Shown piece by piece: positions 5,394 through 62,628 of a stretch of DNA of 64,000 nt (position 1 is its first letter; each line of letters opens with the position of its first letter). The position numbers were made by a program, and so were the translations under genes. The DNA is from a phage. The notes below the pieces were generated by a model that saw only the letters and a program-made list of their open reading frames with translations, was not told the DNA's origin and made no database searches. Where the stretch lies: sequence record PZ534534.1, one strand, 5' to 3'.

Positions 5394-6372
5394 TAAATGA
5401 TAGTGGCTTCGTGCAGAAATGCACGTCGAATAACTTCGTTAATTGCTGGGAAATCCGATTGCTAAACGGACAATCAGCAGCTATAATTACCCTTCCGAAC
5501 CTGTAGTAGGGAGATGTTTGAAATGAAAAATTTAGGCTTTTTAGGCTACAATCATTATTGTGCTACATACGATGGCAGAATTTACAGTCTGTATTCTAAT
5601 AAATTCCTCCATCCTAATGTGCAGAAAAAGACTGGCTATGCTATGGTAACTTTGTGCGAGGACGGTAAAAAGTTCCAAGTGCTCGTTCACAGAGTGATTG
5701 CTATGACTTTTGTTGATAATGACAATCCCAGCGTGAAAACTCAAGTAAACCACCTAGATGGTAATAAGTTGAATAACGCCGCATGGAACCTTGAGTGGAC
5801 AACGCCTGAGGAAAACACACATCACGCTCATGAAATGGGACTTAAAAAGGACTATGTCAATAAATACAGGTCCCTGGATGATGCCACTGCTCTTGAAATA
5901 TGTAGGCTGTTAGAACAAGGCGCAAGGGTAAAAGACATTTGTGAAATGTTCGGTGTCAATCAACCACTTGTAAGTGGTATAAAGAATGGCTCAGTATACC
6001 CAGATATTTCTAAAGAGTTTAACTTTAGAAAAGTGCCAACCTCTAATCGGATAAGTGAGCACAAGATAATAGGTATCTGCGAGGATCTTAGTGATAAGGT
6101 CTTGTGTGTCAATAAAATAGCTAAGAAGTGGGGAGTAAGTTTTAGTGTTGTTAAAGGAATAAAAGACCGTAAGACTTACACCTATATTTCAAACAATTAC
6201 GATTGGTAATGTAGTTCAACGACTATCCCGAGAGGGAGTAGGGCGCAAGCTTATGGCGCTCGAAAAGCGAAGCACCCTGAAATGGGTGGTGATATAGTCT
6301 ACTCTGCATGGTAACATGCAGCAGCACGTAAAGGTGCGGAAGGTGGTGTTGCGACCACCTTTGAATATAAGG
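5394..6372 (+). mobile_element. group I intron 2 (td-like) in terminase gene, carrying an HNH endonuclease ORF
   Basis: 3' core ACGACTATCCC...GGGAGTAGGG...GATATAGTCTACTCTGCATGGTAACATGCAGCAG plus P9-like hairpin AAGGTGGTgttgcgACCACCTT; the exon-3 frame opens only 2 nt before the predicted 3' splice site. Confidence 0.7.
5514..6209 (+). CDS. intron-encoded HNH homing endonuclease with C-terminal HTH
   Basis: Motifs VHRVIAMTFV...VNHLDGNKLNN...NLEWTTPEEN are the canonical HNH endonuclease signature seen in phage homing endonucleases. Confidence 0.85.
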   Translation: MFEMKNLGFLGYNHYCATYDGRIYSLYSNKFLHPNVQKKTGYAMVTLCEDGKKFQVLVHRVIAMTFVDNDNPSVKTQVNHLDGNKLNNAAWNLEWTTPEENTHHAHEMGLKKDYVNKYRSLDDATALEICRLLEQGARVKDICEMFGVNQPLVSGIKNGSVYPDISKEFNFRKVPTSNRISEHKIIGICEDLSDKVLCVNKIAKKWGVSFSVVKGIKDRKTYTYISNNYDW

Positions 6373-7177
6373 ATTCGATAATCCTGTCTGCCTGAGAGAT
6401 AACCCAGAATACCTTGCTTTCCTTGAAGGTCTACCAGAGCTGGAAAAAGCTCAGCTTCTCCATGGTAACTGGTTTGCAAAGCCTGAGGGTGCAAACTATT
6501 TTCAAAGATCTTTCCTTCGTGATGCCGATAGAGTACCTCTTGGGTCAGTATCTTGCAGGGCATGGGATAAGGCAGGAACCGAGAGAACTTCCGGTAATAA
6601 ATTTCCTGACTTTACTGCCAGTATTAAGGTAAGTAAAGATAGCGACGGCTTTTATTACCTGTCCGGTGATTATTGTCCTGAGAACGTGGATGACGGGAGG
6701 TATTCCACAGGTCTGGAAGGCAAGTTCTGTAAAAAGGCTGGTGAACGAGATGTGATCATCAGGAAACAGGCGCAGTTCGATGGTGATGATTGCATAATCG
6801 TCTTCTCTGTGGACCCAGGGCAGGCAGGTAAGAGTGAGTTCTTAACCTCCTCCAGATCCTTGCTTGCCGAAGGGTTCAGGGTTGAAGAAGACCCAATGCC
6901 TTCCAACAAGTCTAAACTGACAAGGTTCTCACCTTTTGCCAATCTTGCCCAACAAGGAATGGTGAGGATTGTAAAATCCAGTTTCCATCCTGATACTCTG
7001 GAAGCATTTCTGACTGAACTTGAAAAATTCAACGGGGAAAGATCAACATTTAACAGAAAAGACGACTGGGCCGACTGCGTAGCTTCTGCGATTAATTTCC
7101 TGGAGAAAGAGGAGGTAGCACTTCCTTGTGTGATTCCATCAATCTCATCACCTTCTATGTTCAAGCGTTTTATCTAA
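6373..7177 (+). CDS. terL: terminase large subunit, exon 3 (nuclease domain)
   Basis: DNPEYLAFLEG...LHGNWF... motif block typical of the terminase C-terminal nuclease domain; frame matches exons 1+2 for a total of about 515 aa. Confidence 0.75.
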
Positions 7178-7180
7178 GTG

Positions 7181-7277: not shown

Positions 7278-8834
7278 GTGTCCAAAAAGAACCGCAGGAA
7301 ACACAACGCCACAGCCAAAACTGTGAATAAATCTGGGAACGCAGGCGCACCAACTCATAATGTTCGTATGAGTGAGATCGGTTCTGGCGCACTTTCCCAA
7401 ATTATGGCAGAATCGCAATCTATGATGGTTGAGGAATTGCGTTGGCCTCAGCTGATTGCCACAGTGGAGACTATGAAATGTGATTCCACAGTTGCTACTG
7501 CCTTAGATACAAAATATGTTTTCATCACGAAAGCATTCAATGATTTTAAGATCCTTTATAATGTTAAAAGTGAAGACTCTAAGAAAGCTGCCGAGCTTAT
7601 AGAGTATTCTTTGCGTAATTTGGCAAACCAACAAACTCTTCGAGATATTGCAAGAAGCGCAGCTACCTTTAACGAGTATGGTTTTTCACTGTTTGAGAAA
7701 GTATACCGCAGAGAGAAAGAAGGTAAATATGCCGGGATGCTTCTTATTGATAAAATTGCATTCCGACCTCAGGCCAGCCTGTCCAGATCAGAGCCGTTTG
7801 TTTTTGACAAGAATAGTAGAACACTGACAGGTATTTATCAGTCACCTAATGCATTTCTAAACACTCAGAATGCACGCTGGGCTGGACCTCTTGCTGCAAT
7901 GCCTTCAAAAGGCTTTAATGAGCCTGAAATTTTCATCCCTGCTAAAAAGCTTATGCTCATGACCCTGTCAGGAACAGAATCTAACCCTGCAGGTGTGTCA
8001 CCGATGATAGGTTGCTACAGATCTTTCCGTGAGAAAGTTCTGATTGAAAACCTTGAGGTTGTTGGCTGTTCCAAAGACCTTGGTGGCGTGCTTGAGCTGA
8101 AAATTCCTTCCAATATTTTGAACAAGGCCAGCATTGACCCGAATTCAATGGAAGGGAGAATGGTTGCAGACCTTATGCTTGACGCAGCAAACGCCCATAG
8201 TGGTGAGCAAAGTTTCTTTATACTTCCGTCTGATAGAGATAAGTCTGGTAAAGAGCTTTACTCCATGACCCTGAAGGGGGTTGATGGTATGGGTAAGCAG
8301 TATTCGACTAAAGATTTGATTGATGCCCGTAAGAAGGCGATTCTTGACCGTTTCGGTGCTGGCTTTATTAACCTCGGTAACGATAACGTTGGATCCTTCT
8401 CTCTGTCTGAGTCAAAACAGTCTATCCATGGTCATTTTGTTCAGCGTGATATAGATATTATCACTGAAGCCTTCAATAAGGATCTTATTCCACAGCTTCT
8501 GGCATTGAATGGTATCATCCTTGAAGATGATGATATGCCTAAACTGAAACCTGGTCTGATTGAAGAGGTGGACATGGAGAGCTTCTCCAAATTTGTCCAG
8601 AGGATCGGTGCTGTAGGTTACTTGCCAAAAACTCCTGCAGTAATTAATAAGATTCTTGAAGTAGGCGGGTTTGATGAAAGATTTGACGAGGACATGGATC
8701 AGGAAGAGCTGATGAAGCTCTTGGGCCAGGACATCAGTAGGGCTGGTGATGGAATGGCTGCAGGATCCACTGGTAACGGCACTTCTAAGATGTCATCAAC
8801 CAGAGATAATTCCATATCCAACATGGAAAATTAA
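7278..8834 (+). CDS. portal protein (putative)
   Basis: 518-aa protein immediately downstream of the terminase, conserved portal position and size; GTG start with GAGGGG RBS. Confidence 0.65.
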   Translation: MSKKNRRKHNATAKTVNKSGNAGAPTHNVRMSEIGSGALSQIMAESQSMMVEELRWPQLIATVETMKCDSTVATALDTKYVFITKAFNDFKILYNVKSEDSKKAAELIEYSLRNLANQQTLRDIARSAATFNEYGFSLFEKVYRREKEGKYAGMLLIDKIAFRPQASLSRSEPFVFDKNSRTLTGIYQSPNAFLNTQNARWAGPLAAMPSKGFNEPEIFIPAKKLMLMTLSGTESNPAGVSPMIGCYRSFREKVLIENLEVVGCSKDLGGVLELKIPSNILNKASIDPNSMEGRMVADLMLDAANAHSGEQSFFILPSDRDKSGKELYSMTLKGVDGMGKQYSTKDLIDARKKAILDRFGAGFINLGNDNVGSFSLSESKQSIHGHFVQRDIDIITEAFNKDLIPQLLALNGIILEDDDMPKLKPGLIEEVDMESFSKFVQRIGAVGYLPKTPAVINKILEVGGFDERFDEDMDQEELMKLLGQDISRAGDGMAAGSTGNGTSKMSSTRDNSISNMEN

Positions 8835-8901
8835 AAATTATCAACACAGGGGGTTGCAAAACCTCCTTTGGCGTGATAAAATAATCCACATGGGGAATAA
8901 G

Positions 8902-9321
8902 ATGCCACAGGAAGAAATGATTTCCTACGAAATCATCTACGAGCCTGACACTAAAGATGCTCACGGTGAGTGGATGAGTAAAGACACCATCAAAAAGGCT
9001 AAAGATAACTGGGACGCAGCATACGCCGCAGGCCTAGTTTCTGAAAACCTTTTTCACTTGACCTCTACAGATGCTTTCACTATTGAAAAGACGTGGATTC
9101 AAGAAGAGTTTGATGTTGTAGTAATTGGCACTGAGCAGGTCATCAAGGCTGGCTCTTGGGTTGCTAAAGTTAAATACAATAATCCTGAACTATGGGAAGC
9201 TAAGAAGGCTGGCATTGTTGGTGGCCTAAGCATTCAGGCAACAGGTAATGTTGATGAAGAAACTGGTGAAATTACCAACGTAAACTTCGGAATCAGTGTT
9301 GTAGAAGAGGGCAATGAATAA
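8902..9321 (+). CDS. hypothetical head morphogenesis protein
   Basis: About 139-aa ORF between portal and scaffold; start codon uncertain (ORF track 8746). Confidence 0.35.
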   Translation: MPQEEMISYEIIYEPDTKDAHGEWMSKDTIKKAKDNWDAAYAAGLVSENLFHLTSTDAFTIEKTWIQEEFDVVVIGTEQVIKAGSWVAKVKYNNPELWEAKKAGIVGGLSIQATGNVDEETGEITNVNFGISVVEEGNE

Positions 9322-51691: not shown

Positions 51692-51726
51692 ATAAAAAGG
51701 GGCCAGACGGCCCCTTTCTTTTTATA
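51692..51726. terminator. bidirectional rho-independent terminator between convergent transcription units
   Basis: Perfect hairpin GGGGCCagacGGCCCC flanked by an A-run upstream and a T-run downstream. Confidence 0.75.
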
Positions 51727-55904: not shown

Positions 55905-57386
55905 TTACTTAGCGTACTCGATTAATTCCACAGTTTTCCCAAAGCTCGGGATATAATTTTTATTATACCCTTCGGTGAGAACCCATAAAGTATCGTACTT
56001 TTTCCACTTGTTGTCAACAGCCTTTTGTTCAAAGTTATGCTCAAAGTAGAGGTCGGTAAGGACGATGACATCTTTTGCATTCGGTATGTTAGCATCCAGA
56101 TACTCGAACACGCAGGCGGCTGTTGTGCCCCATGTTGAGTGGACCTCATAGTTAATCATCTCATCGATGTTACCGCGAGTGTATACTTTAACCTCTCCAA
56201 CCTCCGTTGACCAACAGAACATAGTAACCTTAAACTCTTTATACAAATTGCACAACCCGGTGATCTCATTGAACATTTTCTTTAAAGTTCTTTGTGAGAT
56301 CGACCCAGAAACGTCTAAAGCCACTACAATATCTATAGTGTTTTCCGGATTACGACCAGGAACAATAACGTGTTGATTCTTGTTTATAGCTCCAACTTTT
56401 CGCATTGTGGTGGTCAAAGACCCAGATCGGCGACCAGGTTTTCTGTAGGTTAACTCAGCCTTTCTTTTAGATAACATACGTTGCTTAATAATATCTATAT
56501 AATTGATTACAGGCTTGCCTCTGTTTTTGACAAACTCGCGCACCGCCTCGGGGCAACGACCTCCTGAAGCTTGCATTGCTGCTTCCAACATGTCACCAGA
56601 GTCCTGCATGGCCTGATCTTTGTCAGATTGACTGATTACTGGTTGCGGCTGATCATACCCCATAGCCTTTCCAAGATCATCACTAGTGCCACCGTTCCCG
56701 CTCATGTGATCATCGGTTTGTCGTTTATCTCCTTGGGAGTTCTCACCTTTACCGTTCTTACTTTTACCGCCATTCTGATCTCTTTGTTTATCAAGAACTG
56801 CATAGACGTTCTCAGCAATCCATCCATGAAACCTCATGTCGCAGTAGCAATTAGCTAAGAAGCCAAAAGGCTTACCTTTTACGAACTCAGTGCTTTTCCC
56901 CTTCGGGAAGAAAACACAAGGAGGCTTGCTAAAGTCAACCACAAGACCTGTGTTGATAACGTGATCACAAGCAATATTGAACAGTTCCGGCTCAAAGCTT
57001 TTACCACGGACCAGATGATCACAGATAATATGCCCCACCTCATGTGACAGAAGAAAGGCCACCTCTTTCACAGATTTTGGGGAATAGAAAACCTCAGCCA
57101 TCTCAAACTGCTTGTCAGTCAGAGATGCTTTAAGAATGGTTTTACGCTCATCCGCCAACCCCATAATGAACTCAGGGCTGTAGTAGATGCGTTTATGGTC
57201 GGTTGCCATGGTGGAGCACCATGTGTGGTTTTCTACGAACTGCAACCCTGACAGTAGTGTGCCATAAAACGGCAGCTTTTCAAGGAGATACATACGTGCA
57301 GCCTGCAACATTCTCAGGGCATCATCTTTCTGCGAGGCAATGATTTCTGAACTTCTGCTATCCATTAAAACTCCAGAAGGGGCCAT
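55905..57386 (-). CDS. vWA-domain protein with N-terminal HExxH metallopeptidase-like domain
   Basis: HEVGH zinc-binding motif followed later by a vWA MIDAS motif (VVALDVSGS); family normally partnered with MoxR-type AAA+ ATPases. Confidence 0.7.
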   Translation of the reverse strand: MAPSGVLMDSRSSEIIASQKDDALRMLQAARMYLLEKLPFYGTLLSGLQFVENHTWCSTMATDHKRIYYSPEFIMGLADERKTILKASLTDKQFEMAEVFYSPKSVKEVAFLLSHEVGHIICDHLVRGKSFEPELFNIACDHVINTGLVVDFSKPPCVFFPKGKSTEFVKGKPFGFLANCYCDMRFHGWIAENVYAVLDKQRDQNGGKSKNGKGENSQGDKRQTDDHMSGNGGTSDDLGKAMGYDQPQPVISQSDKDQAMQDSGDMLEAAMQASGGRCPEAVREFVKNRGKPVINYIDIIKQRMLSKRKAELTYRKPGRRSGSLTTTMRKVGAINKNQHVIVPGRNPENTIDIVVALDVSGSISQRTLKKMFNEITGLCNLYKEFKVTMFCWSTEVGEVKVYTRGNIDEMINYEVHSTWGTTAACVFEYLDANIPNAKDVIVLTDLYFEHNFEQKAVDNKWKKYDTLWVLTEGYNKNYIPSFGKTVELIEYAK

Positions 57387-57398
57387 TGGCCCCTGTCA

Positions 57399-58439
57399 TT
57401 ATTTAACGTGTTTGAAAATACCTGCCAACTCGGTCATTGTCATGCGGGTGGTCTTCATAAGATCTGTCATAGCTTTCTCCATAATTGGAGATACTACCAT
57501 AAAGTTTCCTTTAGTGAAACCTTTATTCCAGTCGGTCACCAACAGGGGTTTAAGTCCAGCTCCAAGACGTTCACCAGTTAAAGCACAGCATTTGCGAATA
57601 TACGAACTCTTAAATTGGCTGAATGACAGATCAACTTTCATACCTACATCGTAGAACGTTTGACAATAGAAAGTGTAAGCTTTGGCAATCTCAACATCAT
57701 CAGGTAGTGCAGGAACCTCTTCTGTAAGCTCCTCTTCGACCTCCTGAGTCTCTTTTTCCTCTTCATGCACCTGTTGCGTCATTTCTTCAATCTCTTCTGT
57801 GATAGGCTCGTTTACAATGTCGGAAATGTGCTTCTTGGGTGCACGATAAGTAACTTTAGACATCGGTAGCATATCTTCCTCCTCTTCTTCGTCAAAGAGT
57901 GCTAGTTTATCCTCTTCCGTTCCATATTGCAAGATGAAATCTTCAAAAGTATAATCACCTTTCAATTTCTCCATACGCTCTTCGCTCAGGTGGAGCATCA
58001 TCTGCTGGACAATTTTTCGATCAGTTTCGTCTTTAATCAAGACTGCAGTCTTTTTATCTACCAGACAGTCCTTTAGAGAGTTGCATCTCAATCCCACCAC
58101 ACAACAGTTATCAGCCGCATAAGGACCTTCATCATCTATCCGCTCCAGAGATGGGTAGAAAGGATTCCCCAGCCCGTTTTCATCTGTGTGCATGTCAAAA
58201 GGTATAAGGGTATAGTCGCATACTCCATCTCCTAAAAGTTTTTTACCAAATAGGAGGTATTCTTCCCATGACAGGTCGAACTCTATATCTCGTTTCCGTG
58301 CGTTATTCTGTTTGCGTCTATATTTTTTGAGCAAGCGCTCTAACTCTTCTGGTGTATAATATTTTTCAAGATTCATGAGTCGTCTCTCGTGCTCTGTAAG
58401 TGAAGAAATCGTATCAATTGTCTCAACAGATGTCAACAT
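57399..58439 (-). CDS. hypothetical protein with N-terminal His-Me finger (HNH-like) nuclease-like motif and acidic linker
   Basis: Pattern CDYT...SLERIDDEGPY..NC.....CN..K resembles an HNH nuclease core; poly-Glu linker; ATG at 58439 (ORF-track TTG at 58442). Confidence 0.45.
   Translation of the reverse strand: MLTSVETIDTISSLTEHERRLMNLEKYYTPEELERLLKKYRRKQNNARKRDIEFDLSWEEYLLFGKKLLGDGVCDYTLIPFDMHTDENGLGNPFYPSLERIDDEGPYAADNCCVVGLRCNSLKDCLVDKKTAVLIKDETDRKIVQQMMLHLSEERMEKLKGDYTFEDFILQYGTEEDKLALFDEEEEEDMLPMSKVTYRAPKKHISDIVNEPITEEIEEMTQQVHEEEKETQEVEEELTEEVPALPDDVEIAKAYTFYCQTFYDVGMKVDLSFSQFKSSYIRKCCALTGERLGAGLKPLLVTDWNKGFTKGNFMVVSPIMEKAMTDLMKTTRMTMTELAGIFKHVK
57840..57868. repeat. 29-bp inverted repeat, left arm (inside minus-strand gene)
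   Basis: Exact reverse complement of 59702..59730. Confidence 0.9.
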
Positions 58440-58450
58440 CAAAAACGTGT

Positions 58451-58479
58451 TGACTTTACTCTAACTCCACAATATAGTG
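58451..58479 (+). promoter_or_regulatory. sigma70-like promoter (TTGACT-17-TATAGT) in divergent intergenic region
   Basis: Hexamers with 17-nt spacer about 40 nt upstream of the ATG at 58519. Confidence 0.55.
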
Positions 58480-58518
58480 CACCCATTCGAAAGAAAACTA
58501 ACATAGGAGCACTTACTT

Positions 58519-59418
58519 ATGGCAAATCTTAACAGTTTTAGTACGCGGTGGAAACAGGACATAACAACCAATCTTTCAGCTGGGGACATCCTTTCTGCAA
58601 TTTACGAGGCTTTAGATGATAAAGCTACTTCAAAAGCGGTTTGTACCAACCCATTAATTCCTATAGTGATGAAGGTTATTGAGCGTAGATTGGTATCTGG
58701 GTCTGATAAGTGGACATATTTAGATAATGAAGGACACACCTATTCCAATGGGTATGTCGATATAAAAGTAGAATACGCGGTATCATACCGCCGGAGCGGT
58801 TCTGTAACTTTCAACTTCTCTGGAGGTTTTCGATCTCTGGCTACCTCACCTTTTGTTTCCTCAGAGGAGAAGTATGAGCTGCCATTTCTTTGGATGATGG
58901 CTAACGCGACAGGAAAAACCCCCGTTAGCATCCGAGTAAAATACAACTACAACGGATCTAGTAAGATCTATGCCGAAAGTGTCTCAGCAAGTTTTTATTT
59001 TGTGATGGGGGATGGAATCCTCAAACATATAAAGATGTGCGATATGCATGATGTTATAAATGAAGTGACTGATAAGAATGTTCTAGTGAAAGACCTCAAC
59101 AATTTTTATACACCTGGAGACTATTACGTCAGCCGTCCGCTGTGCATCTTTAATGCCGCACACCCTCTAGGTGAGTATTTGATCGCCAATAGCGATATTG
59201 CCAATAACCGCTTCGAGGTAGCAAGAGTTCAGAATGAGGTATTGACATCTTGCAAGAGCGGTGATAAGTTTACCGAAGAAGAGATGGGTGTTTTAGAAAT
59301 GATGGGATATAAGTGTAGCCTTTGGGTAGATGAGGTGTTTAATGATTGCATCTATGGACAGGATATTTACCCATTAAAGAAGTATACTGATACAAGTTTA
59401 ATTTATGCGAGGGTTTGA
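58519..59418 (+). CDS. hypothetical protein
   Basis: 299-aa ORF, first gene of + strand block. Confidence 0.45.
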   Translation: MANLNSFSTRWKQDITTNLSAGDILSAIYEALDDKATSKAVCTNPLIPIVMKVIERRLVSGSDKWTYLDNEGHTYSNGYVDIKVEYAVSYRRSGSVTFNFSGGFRSLATSPFVSSEEKYELPFLWMMANATGKTPVSIRVKYNYNGSSKIYAESVSASFYFVMGDGILKHIKMCDMHDVINEVTDKNVLVKDLNNFYTPGDYYVSRPLCIFNAAHPLGEYLIANSDIANNRFEVARVQNEVLTSCKSGDKFTEEEMGVLEMMGYKCSLWVDEVFNDCIYGQDIYPLKKYTDTSLIYARV

Positions 59419-59693
59419 CTATGATGAAGGCATGTGGTAATGTATATTACGTCGGTGAACATGTTCAGGCAGACAGTGTGTGGAAATCTATTAAGTCCAC
59501 CACTGACGATGCCTTTCTGAGTGGACTATGTTTCCCCAATCCGGGAGACATCCTCCCTCATCCTGGAGATTTTGTTGTCAACAAGATGGACGGTTATACC
59601 GTGTGCCTGATGGTTGAAAAAATCTTTTTAGACACTAGACACAATCACCGTCTTGTGTTAAAATTTCAAGAATGTAAAATGACAATTGCCTAA
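59415..59693 (+). CDS. hypothetical protein
   Basis: 92-aa ORF overlapping upstream stop by 4 nt. Confidence 0.4.
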   Translation: MTMMKACGNVYYVGEHVQADSVWKSIKSTTDDAFLSGLCFPNPGDILPHPGDFVVNKMDGYTVCLMVEKIFLDTRHNHRLVLKFQECKMTIA

Positions 59694-59701
59694 GGAGACC
59701 T

Positions 59702-59730
59702 TACCGATGTCTAAAGTTACTTATCGTGCA
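59702..59730. repeat. 29-bp inverted repeat, right arm (spans start codon of 59707 gene)
   Basis: TACCGATGTCTAAAGTTACTTATCGTGCA; exact reverse complement of 57840..57868. Confidence 0.9.
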
Positions 59731-60063
59731 GCTATTTACTGCAATGAACACCCAATCAATAATGATGGTCACTGCCTTTTTAAAGAAAATCAATTGGGCT
59801 GTATTGTCCTCCCTGATGAAGGGGAAGGTTATCTGATTGCATTGACAGGGTTTGAACCTAAGGCTCTGGAAGCCAATCTGGACTACCTGGTAGAAGAGGG
59901 TGCTGCAGACCTGGTTGCCAATGGCCTCTCCATAAGCCTTGACGAAGTAGAGCGCTTCATGGGCAATTACCGTGTAGTGCGTGAGTTTACTATCGAGGTG
60001 GAAACTCCCGAGTGGGGTAGCCATGAAACTAATGCCGAAGAAAAAGAAGAGGAGGTAGAATAA
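59707..60063 (+). CDS. hypothetical protein (N-terminus MSKVTYRA)
   Basis: ATG at 59707 preceded by AAGGAG RBS (ORF-track start 59686). Confidence 0.45.
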   Translation: MSKVTYRAAIYCNEHPINNDGHCLFKENQLGCIVLPDEGEGYLIALTGFEPKALEANLDYLVEEGAADLVANGLSISLDEVERFMGNYRVVREFTIEVETPEWGSHETNAEEKEEEVE

Positions 60064-60320
60064 TGAAAGTGCAGATCTTGACTAATGCCGAGAAGATGTT
60101 TATTGAAGATACACCTTTTGAAGCTGGTGAGCTACAGTTCGTTTATTTTGTTGACTTAGATAAGGTGTTTCCTGCACTGAATCTAGGTTTGGATGAAGTT
60201 CCTCATAAGGTTTTGTGCCAAGTTGTTCGTGCCTTAGCGGCAGAGGGGGAGTTCCACACCCTTCAAGATGTCCAGACCTACGGGTATCTTGAACTACAAC
60301 GAGAAGAAGAGGTGGACTGA
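60063..60320 (+). CDS. hypothetical protein
   Basis: 85-aa ORF. Confidence 0.4.
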   Translation: MKVQILTNAEKMFIEDTPFEAGELQFVYFVDLDKVFPALNLGLDEVPHKVLCQVVRALAAEGEFHTLQDVQTYGYLELQREEEVD

Positions 60321-60322
60321 TA

Positions 60323-60703
60323 ATGGCTCAGTGGAAGACAACAGTTGACCTTCATGATCAGTGGTTAGGACGCATCACTGAAGACGGGAAGCTAGTGGAG
60401 TGGGACAATAAGCATGTTAGCGAGTTGGCAAGTATTGTGGCTGGCAAGTTACGCTCCAAGTTCCCTGAACAACTGGATCCTGATAGTTCAAAGTTCGATC
60501 CTGAGTTAGAGGATGTTGTATACTACTTCGACACCGTTGATGACTACGACGCGTGGTTTGCAGCACGGGAGCTTTACCCACAAGGCTCTGCTATGCGCCA
60601 GATGGAAGAAGATTATCCTCCGTGTGAGCAATTCAATAGTGCAATGACTTGCCTCTATGATTGGGCAGATAAGAACCTTGTCTGGATTCGGACTGCATTT
60701 TAG
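60323..60703 (+). CDS. hypothetical protein
   Basis: 126-aa ORF. Confidence 0.4.
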   Translation: MAQWKTTVDLHDQWLGRITEDGKLVEWDNKHVSELASIVAGKLRSKFPEQLDPDSSKFDPELEDVVYYFDTVDDYDAWFAARELYPQGSAMRQMEEDYPPCEQFNSAMTCLYDWADKNLVWIRTAF

Positions 60704-60747
60704 TGGGCAGGAATGGCGGCAAGGATGCTGCTTAAGGAGTAGTAGAG

Positions 60748-61017
60748 ATGTTATACCAGCAATATGAACTTCGTGCAGAAAAAGAGTTAAATTTTGACAA
60801 AGATATTCACAGATATTATTATGGGAAAGTTAGAGGGCAAGCAAGAAAGTGTACTCCAACACTCTTTTATGCCAGCAGACGACTAGCGCCAGAAGAGGCA
60901 ACAGCAGAAAGGGTTGCGTACAACTGGAGAGTCACGTATGATATTGACAGATTCGATGTGATATCTGTTTTGGAAAACTTTGAAAACACTTACACACAAG
61001 TAGAGGACTTTTACTAA
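60748..61017 (+). CDS. hypothetical protein
   Basis: 89-aa ORF. Confidence 0.4.
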   Translation: MLYQQYELRAEKELNFDKDIHRYYYGKVRGQARKCTPTLFYASRRLAPEEATAERVAYNWRVTYDIDRFDVISVLENFENTYTQVEDFY

Positions 61018-62201
61018 TGTCAAGAAACGTATTCGAAAGTGGTCAAATCACTGTCCGTGAGTTGCCAGCTATTATTCAGTTTGCCCAACGTCATAGCCGA
61101 TCTGTCCTAATTTTGGGACCAATGGGTGTGGGTAAAAGCCAGGTGATGAAGCAGATCGCTGATAATATGTTCGGTGAGCGAGATGACAACCTTGTTGACG
61201 TGCGACTGTCAGATAAAGATCCTGCCGACTTATCTGGGCTACCTATCCCTGTAGAAGCGGATGGAACTACACGTACAGTGTTTGCAATTCCAGAATTTTG
61301 GCCTGCGGATCCTGACTGGAGCGGAATTATCTTTCTGGATGAGCTCACTCATGCAGATAACTACCTGCAAAAGGTTGCAATGCAAATTATGCTTGACCAC
61401 AAGTGCGGCACCTATGCATTCCCTAAAGGTTCTGTTTTTGTGGCTGCGGGTAACCGTTCTACAGATGGTGCGGTTCTTTCGGCGCTCGAAGCCCCTCTGG
61501 CTAACCGTTTTATCATTGTAGAGGTTACAAGCAATGCAGAGGTGTTTATTGAGGACTACGCATTCCTCAACGGGGTTCACTCCTCTGTAATTGGGTATCT
61601 GAAAAGAGTTCCATCAGCTATTGATAATTATGAGGCTATGGCTGAGATTAATTGTCCATCTTTTGCCACACCACGATCTTGGGTTGCTGCATCTGACATC
61701 TTGCACGATTTTGACAGCGGTATTATTTCTGACGCTATGGCCCGTGTTCTTCTACAAGGTGCTATTGGTCACACTGCAGCGGTAGAGATCTGGACTTACC
61801 ACACCAAGAAACGTAATTTACCGGAAATCGGTCGGATTATGGCAGGTGGCTGCAAAGAATACGTAGGTCCTAAGCAGCCAGACATTTTGTGGATTCTTGG
61901 ATCTGAAGGTTGTATCGCTATTCGCAATATGATGGAAAATGCAAGTATCTCAGACGAAGATCTTGTCAGCTGCGTGGCAAACTTCCTCGATTTCCTTTGG
62001 GAAAACTTCAAGGACGAGAACCGAGATTTTGTATTCTCAGTCTTTATGGCGATGATGAAACCTAATGCCTTAGGAAATGCCTTGCTTATCGGTAAAGGGC
62101 GTGACAAGATTGTTGCTCAGCTGATCAAAGCATACCCAAACCTGATGAAGATTGTAAAAGAGTTTGGTGAAGAGTTTAGCGCCATTTTGGCTAAAGCTTA
62201 A
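61017..62201 (+). CDS. AAA+ ATPase, MoxR-like
   Basis: Walker A GPMGVGKS and Walker B IIFLDEL with overall MoxR-type layout. Confidence 0.8.
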   Translation: MSRNVFESGQITVRELPAIIQFAQRHSRSVLILGPMGVGKSQVMKQIADNMFGERDDNLVDVRLSDKDPADLSGLPIPVEADGTTRTVFAIPEFWPADPDWSGIIFLDELTHADNYLQKVAMQIMLDHKCGTYAFPKGSVFVAAGNRSTDGAVLSALEAPLANRFIIVEVTSNAEVFIEDYAFLNGVHSSVIGYLKRVPSAIDNYEAMAEINCPSFATPRSWVAASDILHDFDSGIISDAMARVLLQGAIGHTAAVEIWTYHTKKRNLPEIGRIMAGGCKEYVGPKQPDILWILGSEGCIAIRNMMENASISDEDLVSCVANFLDFLWENFKDENRDFVFSVFMAMMKPNALGNALLIGKGRDKIVAQLIKAYPNLMKIVKEFGEEFSAILAKA

Positions 62202-62211
62202 GGGGGGTTGT

Positions 62212-62592
62212 ATGGCTAAAGTAGGTAAGCGGGGAAACTACCTGGTGGTATTGACCGAGGAGCCGGAGAAGGAGTACGAATGCAGCTCCACTTGCGTGAT
62301 CGATATCCGAGAAAAAGATGTAGATGAAGTCTGGTTTAAAATATTGGACGCTTGCGATAGCAGTGATTATTTCTTCATTTATGTCAACGATAAGGCTGGA
62401 TTCTTCCATGACGACGGAGAGTTGCCGTATGAAATCTATGAACTTGTAGAGGCTTGCCATCGTGGAGATGCGGAGTTGTTTGGCCTACGGCTGAAAAGCG
62501 GTAAATTCTTCTATCAAGATGAGTGCATGAATCTTCATAACTTTGTAGAGGGAACTTGCAACGATGGAGAGATTTTGGCACACTACGATTAA
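62212..62592 (+). CDS. hypothetical protein
   Basis: ATG at 62212 with GGGGGG RBS (ORF track 62164). Confidence 0.4.
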   Translation: MAKVGKRGNYLVVLTEEPEKEYECSSTCVIDIREKDVDEVWFKILDACDSSDYFFIYVNDKAGFFHDDGELPYEIYELVEACHRGDAELFGLRLKSGKFFYQDECMNLHNFVEGTCNDGEILAHYD

Positions 62593-62604: not shown

Positions 62605-62628
62605 CCCCCGCTTCGGCGGGGATTTTCT
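62605..62628 (+). terminator. rho-independent terminator (CGCTTCGGCG family)
   Basis: Hairpin CCCCCGCttcgGCGGGG followed by ATTTTCTATTT. Confidence 0.65.

Follow-up and report, generated by a model that had tools for sequence, protein, structure and literature searches.

A divergent MoxR-type AAA+ ATPase and a vWA partner with a zincin-like domain on opposite strands of an rV5-like coliphage

Can two genes that lie 3,630 nt apart on opposite strands of a phage genome encode the two halves of one machine, an AAA+ ATPase and a vWA partner bearing an HExxH domain? The question is raised by a locus in PZ534534.1, of which a stretch of 64,000 nucleotides (the window) was analysed. The window comes from an rV5-like coliphage (Vequintavirus). 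The vWA-partner ORF spans 55905..57386 on the minus strand (493 aa) and the ATPase ORF spans 61017..62201 on the plus strand (394 aa), both recovered as an earlier, sequence-only reading had placed them. The 6.3-kb region is at least 80% covered in one place in 115 phage genomes, at 90–99% nucleotide identity. Because these genomes keep the region, both ORFs are true conserved genes and chance ORFs are excluded. The pair is already known: GenBank records name a MoxR ATPase and a vWA metallopeptidase, and the same pair was reported from jumbo phages by Iyer et al. (2021). It is not new in kind, and the inversion and the perfect 29-nt inverted repeat reported here are minor additions.

Family assignment of the two proteins

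The two genes and the domains of the minus-strand protein are as follows.

55905..57365, minus strand: vWA partner gene (486 aa), with an N-terminal HExxH zincin-like domain (DUF2201_N) and a C-terminal vWA-like domain (DUF2201)
56424..57104, minus strand: best Pfam stretch for DUF2201_N, aa 95–321 of the 493-aa frame
55923..56330, minus strand: vWA-like domain, aa 353–488, with MIDAS residues D358-x-S360-x-S362, T421 and D445, all invariant
61017..62201, plus strand: MoxR-clade AAA+ ATPase (394 aa), 100% identical to a phage rV5 protein annotated 'MoxR ATPase'

The minus-strand protein clears the gathering score for both Pfam domains, which occur in N-to-C order (DUF2201_N, PF13203, 100 bits against a cut-off of 23.2; DUF2201, PF09967, 43.7 bits against 26.4). 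Residues H115-E116-V-G-H119-x4-H124, R127 and D141 of DUF2201_N are invariant in 30 homologues from phages and bacteria; zinc binding and catalysis at this conserved HExxH zinc-site motif are putative. The C-terminal domain has a Rossmann-like vWA fold with a complete MIDAS (DxSxS...T...D), and its compact model has no obvious long 'finger' insertion. The description of this protein as a vWA protein with an HExxH domain is thus borne out. No match was obtained among PDB sequences, NCBIfam or PADLOC. The vWA-peptidase family comprises 33,255 cluster representatives (50% identity) at E ≤ 1e-3. Translation probably starts at ATG 57365 (486 aa) and not at 57386: GGAG lies 6 nt 5' of ATG 57365, the same start is used in the Murica and LL12 annotations and in a 536-member protein cluster, and the alternative ATG 57386, at the upper end of the open frame, falls within a GC-rich hairpin.

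Many RefSeq and GenBank records of this gene carry the label 'HNH endonuclease', as does PHROG 1314 (8.9e-123). If the gene did encode an HNH or homing endonuclease, it would have no ATPase partner. There is next to no chance of this: no HNH family appeared among the Pfam matches of the protein at E ≤ 0.1, and its entire length is explained by DUF2201_N and DUF2201, with the vWA fold and the invariant MIDAS. The label is a propagated, widespread mis-annotation of a vWA-peptidase, which our analysis exposes in many records.

The plus-strand protein has a full AAA+ catalytic set, invariant in 27 sequences: Walker A G34-x4-G39-K40-S41, Walker B D108-E109, N146, R164 and R220. Judging from their positions, N146 would be sensor 1, R164 the arginine finger and R220 sensor 2. 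The gathering score was not reached for any of the Pfam MoxR-type models AAA_3 (PF07726), AAA_5 (PF07728; 16.7 bits against a cut-off of 22) and bpMoxR (PF20030; 15.1 against 27), and the protein misses every curated cut-off in Pfam and NCBIfam. Since single-sequence searches of Pfam, NCBIfam, PADLOC and PDB sequences returned P-loop-level, sub-threshold matches only, the assignment required homologues, profiles and a fold search. In alignment A1, none of the 17 Vequintavirinae-type members reached the MoxR-type Pfam models at E ≤ 1e-3, while all ten members of a sister clade of 360-aa proteins did. The sister-clade proteins match the window ATPase at E ~1e-44, with 34% identity over 85% of its length, and carry AAA_3/AAA_5/bpMoxR. 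MoxR membership is therefore transitive and not direct, as only these relatives match the Pfam models.

An AF2 model of the ATPase (pLDDT 84) has a hairpin (E75-81/E84-90) between beta2 and beta3 and short strands at 129–135 ahead of beta4 (pre-sensor-1 hairpin). The predicted structure thus contains a helix-2 insert and a pre-sensor-1 beta-hairpin in a MoxR-like fold. The top 16 Foldseek matches in the PDB were NorQ and the MoxR protein CbbQ2 (TM on target 0.59–0.67; best E 3e-8 to 7e-8), and the NorQ structures include a complex with the NorD vWA domain. Among PDB sequences, the midasin AAA ring (3e-10) was the best match to a profile built from the ATPase alignment. The protein is a divergent MoxR-clade AAA+, placed by its relatives, predicted fold and gene neighbourhood; the earlier MoxR-like assignment stands on these grounds but finds no backing in the protein's own Pfam scores. 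The A1 profile returned only ten MAG contigs from genome contigs, so the clade looks phage-borne. Searches of PADLOC, NCBIfam and the PDB with both proteins revealed no tie to any known defence system.

Pairing of the genes and origin of the split layout

The ATPase is genomically associated with a vWA partner, which the window carries 3.6 kb off and on the other strand. In IMG/VR, 68 of 69 loci with room for it have the vWA gene immediately 3' of the ATPase gene and co-directional with it, with a median gap of 72 nt, and the same adjacent co-directional order was found in all nine MAG contigs. Adjacent, co-directional ATPase-then-vWA order also occurs in Sulfurivermis, an N4-like phage, Atu_ph07, A73, POP15 and an Aeromonas phage. 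The identities of the two proteins to the window pair fall in step (ATPase/vWA: 53/44, 50/46, 42/37, 37/38, 35/36, 35/33 and 32/26%). Gene neighbourhood thus strongly supports the two families being partners, in line with the view that they are two halves of an ATPase-vWA pair; adjacency is near-universal outside the split-type clade. Two lineages (L077 and L108) have the ATPase and no vWA gene within 8–10 kb, which suggests that the ATPase may not always need a vWA partner.

The divergent 3.6-kb layout pointed out in the sequence-only reading is genuine and unusual, and is confined to the clade of Vequintavirus, Seunavirus and Klebsiella phages. The adjacent-type gene order is PIF1(-) SleB-like(-) .. 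P .. ATPase(+) vWA(+), and the split-type order is vWA(-) .. P .. ATPase(+) .. SleB-like(+) PIF1(+). As judged from gene order, the split layout is explained by one inversion of the block from the promoter region to the ATPase. Both genes stay beside the same promoter region in the five split-type lineages examined, and across split-type lineages that have drifted to ~45–53% identity both are intact, with all catalytic, MIDAS and HExxH residues kept. Elsewhere among phages, the pair has nucleotide-metabolism and replication genes (5'-3' exonuclease, ThyA, dUTPase, ThyX) for neighbours. In rV5-type phages, rIIA, an anti-sigma-like gene and many small ORFs share its block, and its own units contain no structural genes.

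Control region and transcription units

The elements between and around the two genes are listed below.

57378..57394, minus strand: GC-rich hairpin with a 7-bp stem and 3-nt loop, separating the upstream gene's stop codon from the vWA start
57399..58376, minus strand: opening gene of the leftward unit, preceding the vWA gene, recorded as 'anti-sigma factor' or 'HNH endonuclease'
57840..57868, minus strand: left arm of a 29-nt perfect inverted repeat, internal to the anti-sigma-like gene
58377..58518, no strand: intergenic divergent control region (142 bp) with sigma-70-like promoters whose -35 boxes are back to back
58436..58431 (-35 TTGACA) and 58413..58408 (-10 TACGAT), leftward: sigma-70-like promoter with a 17-nt spacer, just inside the control region
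58450-58455 (-35 TTGACT) and 58473-58478 (-10 TATAGT), rightward: sigma-70-like promoter with a 17-nt spacer
58519..61017, plus strand: six small or unknown ORFs of the rightward unit before the ATPase (299, 92, ~118, 85, 126 and 89 aa)
59702..59730, plus strand: right arm of the 29-nt inverted repeat, covering the annotated start and first 8 codons (MSKVTYRA) of ORF 59707-60063
62212..62592, plus strand: 126-aa ORF right after the ATPase gene, the final gene before the terminator
62606..62621, plus strand: intrinsic-terminator-like hairpin, CCCCGCTTCGGCGGGG then ATTTTCTATT, closing the rightward unit and also annotated in Murica

A scan of the region for sigma-70-like promoters gave 31 sites, compared with 24 ± 4.7 in shuffles, which is no enrichment, so the promoter calls rest on position and conservation. 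TGTCAA, the leftward -35 box, is invariant in the five split-type lineages. A strong sigma-70-like match at 60794-60822, just 5' of the ATPase gene, was set aside as a promoter: it lies inside the 89-aa ORF and comes from the same unenriched scan. The stop of that last ORF overlaps the ATPase start (TAATG). Because the units start back to back in one region and the leftward -35 box is invariant, they are probably expressed simultaneously, possibly at different levels. The suggestion that separate promoters set the stoichiometry of the two proteins is thus plausible, but both units begin in a single 142-bp region.

The first gene of the leftward unit had no Pfam hit; its PHROG matches fall in families labelled Srd anti-sigma factor, sigma-70 decoy and endonuclease VII, and among the loci examined it is restricted to split-type phages. 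The hairpin between this gene and the vWA gene (RNA fold -18 kcal/mol, z -2.45) might act as an attenuator or influence RNA stability; it is labelled a terminator in Murica, and an adjacent U-tract is absent.

The arms of the 29-nt inverted repeat flank the divergent promoters. The left arm encodes an internal M-S-K-V-T-Y-R-A, with GAGGAGGA before it. The repeat was considered as the border of an invertible promoter segment, and the predicted inverted junction was found in none of the 116 matching phage genomes (at least 80% coverage). An actively flipping segment is therefore rejected at the consensus level.

A proposed machine, its alternatives and known systems

The explanation that we find best overall, and consider probable, is a phage-borne MoxR-type AAA+/vWA machine that was split by inversion, is made early and works in a NorQD-like manner. 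The two genes would encode its subunits, with the vWA subunit bearing the N-terminal HExxH zincin-like domain. The ancestral state would have been an ATPase-then-vWA bicistron. A single inversion, in the ancestor shared by the Vequintavirus, Seunavirus and Klebsiella-phage lineages, would then have turned around the block from the bidirectional early promoter region through the end of the ATPase gene, with one breakpoint in the ATPase-vWA spacer. Such an inversion would account for the present positions of the vWA gene, second in the leftward unit and ~1 kb from the promoter, and of the ATPase gene, seventh in the rightward unit and ~2.5 kb from it. Host RNA polymerase would make both proteins early. 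An ATPase hexamer would bind a single vWA subunit, like NorQ in its 'finger-in-pore' complex with NorD, and ATP hydrolysis would move or activate the HExxH domain, or a MIDAS-bound client, on a phage or host target. The NorQD binding mode is carried over to the phage pair as an analogy and not as a result. A 6:1 complex would need unequal protein amounts, which separate promoters and the hairpin before the vWA gene could supply.

The same machine might instead serve virion assembly, with a late structural client, the pair acting as chaperone and co-chaperone and the HExxH domain processing structural proteins (Iyer et al., 2021). Such a function was suggested for ASV44729/ASV44728, the jumbo-phage pair (PMC7824862) whose homology and adjacency we confirm, and a part in tail development is implied for the MoxR ATPase p618 of the archaeal virus ATV, which binds the vWA protein p892 (PMC4124505). 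Nevertheless, we regard it as unlikely, as the proposal is a prediction and not an experiment, the rV5-type genes adjoin sigma-70-like promoters in a block with rIIA and have no structural genes in their units, and elsewhere the pair keeps company with nucleotide-metabolism and replication genes. That last association also speaks for metal insertion or enzyme maturation, in which the pair, like NorQD, CbbQO, CoxDE or the chelatases, would remodel a phage or host metalloenzyme, the HExxH motif serving metal binding or delivery and not proteolysis; the nearest solved structures, NorQ/NorD and CbbQ, do insert metal or reactivate an enzyme (PMC13036017). This reading is nonetheless rather improbable, given that no conserved candidate client gene lies beside the pair across lineages, that the rV5-type neighbours are unrelated small ORFs, and that E116, the invariant Glu behind the first His, is what a catalytic zincin typically has.

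The inversion could also have uncoupled the genes, leaving proteins that work apart in independent roles or one that is decaying. Separate transcripts 3.6 kb apart, the ATPases of L077 and L108 and a vWA gene that is in two pieces in the original rV5 record would all be compatible with this. It is very unlikely in view of the conservation of the whole region in 115 genomes, the parallel divergence of two genes that keep all key residues, and the promoter region flanked by both in five of five split-type lineages. Lastly, the split may itself be adaptive, with opposite arms of one early promoter independently setting a ~6:1 dosage and the 29-nt element acting as a shared post-transcriptional operator, an idea to which we give very little credence. 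If it were true, the element, identical RNA including the AUG in both divergent transcripts, would coordinate the arms.

Our literature search on DUF2201, COG3864, rV5-type and N4-like phages and Vequintavirus transcriptomics turned up nothing on the function, interaction, expression or phenotype of these genes and their products. It yielded predictions and no experiment on the family, in agreement with the view that the role of such pairs in infection is unsettled. The finding matters little beyond annotation. As the pair is spread over Vequintavirinae, N4-like phages, jumbo phages and bacteria, a client found in one tractable coliphage would inform the whole family. E. coli K-12 supports the growth of rV5-type phages such as EdH4, which are already open to Cas13-based knock-down, and the split layout brings the small practical gain that either subunit can be silenced or deleted without a polar effect on the other.

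Among known systems, Midasin/Rea1, the best profile match of the ATPase alignment, is an AAA_5-type ring that docks its own MIDAS/vWA domain, but its six AAA modules are fused in one giant eukaryotic polypeptide that functions in ribosome biogenesis. NorQ-NorD and CbbQ-CbbO share with the phage pair an AAA+ with helix-2 insert and pre-sensor-1 hairpin and a MIDAS vWA partner, whose N-terminal domain lies upstream of the vWA domain and is joined to it by a linker. Cryo-EM of NorQD revealed one vWA protein per hexamer (PMC13036017). Sequence identity is only 17–21%, the clients (cNOR, Rubisco) have no counterpart in the phage, and the phage vWA model lacks an evident finger insertion. ATV, the Acidianus two-tailed virus, also has a viral MoxR-vWA pair, p618 and p892, in which the vWA protein binds and stimulates the MoxR ATPase (PMC4124505). 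It differs in being an archaeal virus, whose pair acts in extracellular tail growth; p892 lacks a peptidase domain and p618 is a virion component. The DUF2201 protein of Sulfurivermis fontis ('predicted metal-dependent peptidase') and its upstream AAA_5 ATPase form the same two-gene module with the same domain order; bacterial DUF2201 proteins are ~22–25% identical to the phage protein and lack two Vequintavirinae insertions. A MoxR AAA+/metallopeptidase-vWA pair was described in group 2.2 jumbo phages (Iyer et al., Viruses 2021; PMC7824862). The pair of Agrobacterium phage Atu_ph07, ASV44729.1/ASV44728.2, is homologous to that of the window (ATPase tblastn 1e-27; HMM E 1e-84 and 5e-91 for the two genes), with an N-terminal HExxH domain followed by a vWA domain in the vWA subunit. 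Compared with this jumbo-phage pair, the rV5-type proteins have lineage-specific insertions and their ATPases fall below Pfam AAA_5/AAA_3, and whereas the Atu_ph07 genes are adjacent and co-directional, those of rV5-type phages are split onto divergent units.

Family assignment and pairing of the two genes

The sequence-only reading had proposed that a minus-strand vWA protein with an HExxH domain and a plus-strand MoxR-like AAA+ ATPase are two halves of a pair. The coordinates of both ORFs were exact and the interpretation is supported overall. The features discussed here are:

51696-51717: GC hairpin with A-run and T-run flanks, AAAGGGGCCAGACGGCCCCTTT then CTTTTT
55905-57386, minus strand: vWA-peptidase gene
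57399-58376, minus strand: anti-sigma-like gene, first of the leftward unit
57840-57868 and 59702-59730: 29-nt inverted repeat, perfect and with sharp boundaries; each coding strand reads TACCGATGTCTAAAGTTACTTATCGTGCA
58377-58518: predicted promoter region
58519-59418, plus strand: 299-aa protein
59707-60063: ORF starting MSKVTYRA
60748-61017, plus strand: 89-aa ORF
61017-62201, plus strand: ATPase gene
62606-62621: terminator-like hairpin

Profile searches placed both domains of the minus-strand protein above the Pfam cut-offs (DUF2201_N, putative metallopeptidase, 2.3e-28; DUF2201, VWA-like, 3.6e-11), which bears out its proposed family. Across 30 aligned homologues from phages and bacteria, H115, E116, H119, H124, R127 and D141 never vary, nor does the full MIDAS motif (D358, S360, S362, T421 and D445). 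An R-P-x-R-R segment at aa 318-323 is also conserved. The family comprises 33,255 representatives (50%-identity clusters, E<=1e-3). The gene likely starts at ATG 57365 rather than 57386, giving 486 aa with GGAG 6 nt upstream; ATG 57386 falls within a GC hairpin (57378-57394). PHROG 1314, the family of this protein, carries the label "HNH endonuclease", and this name, or "homing endonuclease", has been passed on to entries in RefSeq and GenBank (Murica NC_041871, FFH2 NC_024134, FV3, Aeromonas 4L372XY, Serratia BF, Bacillus phage G and Pseudomonas phages Paride and Cassandra). A domain search of the protein found no HNH domain.

The MoxR-like assignment of the ATPase was upheld by its relatives, residues, fold and alignment profile, but not by single-sequence profile searches, in which all AAA matches were sub-threshold. 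About 5,700 homologues were recovered. The nearest clade outside the Vequintavirinae (34% identity, E about 1e-44) contains Pfam AAA_3, AAA_5 and sometimes bpMoxR, and Walker A, Walker B, N146, R164 and R220 are invariant. The predicted structure (pLDDT 84) has both beta-hairpin inserts of the helix-2-insert clade, and by fold it comes closest, among PDB entries, to NorQ (also in the form bound to the vWA domain of NorD) and to CbbQ2, a MoxR Rubisco activase. The top match of the alignment profile against PDB sequences is the midasin AAA ring. Together, these place the ATPase in the MoxR/AAA_5/midasin clade.

Gene neighbourhoods identify the two proteins as a pair. The ATPase alignment recovered 80 IMG/VR loci, 69 of which continue for 1.5 kb or more downstream, and a DUF2201 gene lies directly 3' of the ATPase gene on the same strand in 68 of the 69 (median gap 72 nt). 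The same order was found in all nine informative MAG contigs, in large uncultured phages, on a Sulfurivermis chromosome, and in an N4-like roseophage, Aeromonas phage 4L372XY, Pectobacterium phage POP15 (Certrevirus), Escherichia phage A73 and Agrobacterium jumbo phage Atu_ph07. A few ORFs intervene between the two genes in two cases, L008 (1.5 kb) and Pseudomonas phage Cassandra (2.9 kb, with a homing-endonuclease-like gene among them). Measured against the window copies, both proteins lose identity in parallel across lineages. In two lineages, L108 (Logan SRR16894747 contig) and L077 (IMGVR_UViG_3300048042_000013), the 8-10 kb flanking the ATPase gene on each side contain no DUF2201 gene; blastp gives 59% identity to the window protein for one of these ATPases, and tblastn 28% for the other. 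Tail genes lie immediately upstream of the L108 ATPase gene, on the same strand.

The MoxR/vWA pair is already annotated, and pairs of this kind have already been described. Many rV5-like coliphages (Vequintavirus: EdH4, Murica, LL12 and FFH2) match the 6.3-kb region at 98-99% identity, and 115 phage records have a single match spanning at least 80% of it. Proteins 100% identical to the window ATPase and vWA protein are annotated "MoxR ATPase" in phage rV5 and "metallopeptidase" in phage nomine, respectively. The pair is labelled "metallopeptidase, contains von Willebrand factor domain" and "ATPase" in Murica, and "putative metallopeptidase" and "MoxR ATPase" in LL12. New in this analysis are the statistics on near-universal adjacency, the proposed origin of the split by a single inversion, and the conservation of the predicted back-to-back promoters. 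In DQ832317.1 (phage rV5) the vWA-peptidase gene matches in two pieces (7756-9214) annotated as two hypothetical proteins, which suggests a frameshift or sequencing error. Sixteen unannotated MG0656xx records carry a Campylobacter jejuni phage label (C12, C2, A12a, C5, C7, C15, D#); they are 97.6-98.2% identical to E. coli rV5-like phages across the region (shorter stretches up to 100%), which probably reflects a wrong host label or contamination.

Origin of the split layout

The divergent layout is shared by the window, Klebsiella phage K54_rec6 (4.6 kb between the two genes), Seunavirus 4MG (4.4 kb) and two metagenomic lineages, L109 and L110. Adjacent-type loci have the order PIF1(-) SleB-like(-) ... 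promoter region ... ATPase(+) vWA(+), and split-type loci the order vWA(-) anti-sigma-like(-) promoter region ... ATPase(+) ... SleB-like(+) PIF1(+). The split-type order matches the product of one inversion of the block from the promoter region to the ATPase gene, in which one breakpoint would lie between the ATPase and vWA genes. Adjacency would be ancestral, because it is present in bacteria and distant phage families, and both flanks would have stayed transcribed because the two-way promoter region travelled with the inverted block. Among the loci examined, the anti-sigma-like gene between promoter and vWA gene was seen in split-type loci only. Relatives carry mobile elements in this same early region: within the rightward unit of L109 an IS605-type TnpB/Cas12f-like gene (6081-7178) precedes the ATPase gene, and in L110 an intein with a LAGLIDADG domain lies inside the PIF1 helicase (1-1557).

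Promoters, repeats and neighbouring ORFs

The sequence-only reading also expected separate promoters to set the stoichiometry of the two proteins. Two promoters are indeed predicted, but within one compact region of 142 bp (taking the annotated anti-sigma-like start, 58376): TTGACA-17-TACGAT leftward and TTGACT-17-TATAGT rightward, with their -35 boxes back to back. Five split-type lineages, with proteins no more than about 45-60% identical, all keep the leftward -35 unchanged (TGTCAA on the plus strand) and have rightward -35/-10-like boxes at matching positions. The promoter scan overall found no enrichment over shuffles, so the promoters stay predictions, and we found no transcript data for the region in the literature. 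Given one shared control region, the two units likely have the same timing and independently set levels. The terminator-like hairpin at 62606-62621 would end the rightward unit one gene past the ATPase, and the hairpin at 51696-51717, where a long plus-strand block meets the minus-strand block holding the vWA gene, is likely a bidirectional terminator.

The repeat arms lie 1,833 nt apart. They straddle the divergent promoters, and therefore both transcripts would share the same 29-nt RNA with an AUG. This AUG is the annotated start of ORF 59707-60063 in the right arm and, in the left arm, an internal Met of the anti-sigma-like gene (57863), preceded by GAGGAGGA. Murica and LL12 keep the repeat, whereas the Seunavirus, Klebsiella, A73 and POP15 relatives lack it; none of 116 matching genomes has an inverted isoform of the intervening segment.

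The 58519-59418 product is named "putative alpha 1-3 fucosyltransferase" in several records; it has no Pfam or NCBIfam match, its sole match being a PHROG of unknown function, and the annotation looks unsupported. The anti-sigma-like gene, upstream of the vWA gene, is labelled "anti-sigma factor" or "HNH endonuclease"; a Pfam search gave no match and its PHROG labels are mixed (HNH endonuclease, sigma-70 decoy, Srd anti-sigma factor and endonuclease VII). The stop codon of the 89-aa ORF and the start codon of the ATPase gene overlap (TAATG), a sign of possible translational coupling. The PHROG of this ORF (13164) bears the name "ATPase", yet the protein is tiny and lacks a P-loop. K54_rec6 and 4MG have no equivalent ORF; in both, the ATPase gene follows the homologue of ORF 60323-60703.

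Possible function and comparison with known systems

Virion assembly and proteolytic processing have been proposed for a homologous jumbo-phage pair (Iyer et al. 2021, PMC7824862). Such a role may still apply here, but it fits less well with the early-region position of the pair in the window and its nucleotide-metabolism neighbours elsewhere. Bacillus phage 0305phi8-36 remains viable, though with a growth defect, when a deletion takes out a MoxR-like and a vWA-like gene together with two tRNA genes and six unknown genes (PMC3357382); these MoxR-like and vWA-like genes may or may not be homologous to the window pair. We propose, by analogy, that a hexamer of the phage ATPase would grip one vWA-peptidase and that ATP would serve to position or activate the HExxH domain on a client. 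The closest solved or characterised analogues are NorQ-NorD, whose binding mode its authors expect for AAA+/vWA pairs generally (PMC13036017), and the archaeal virus ATV, in which the MoxR ATPase p618 is bound and stimulated by the vWA protein p892 (PMC4124505).
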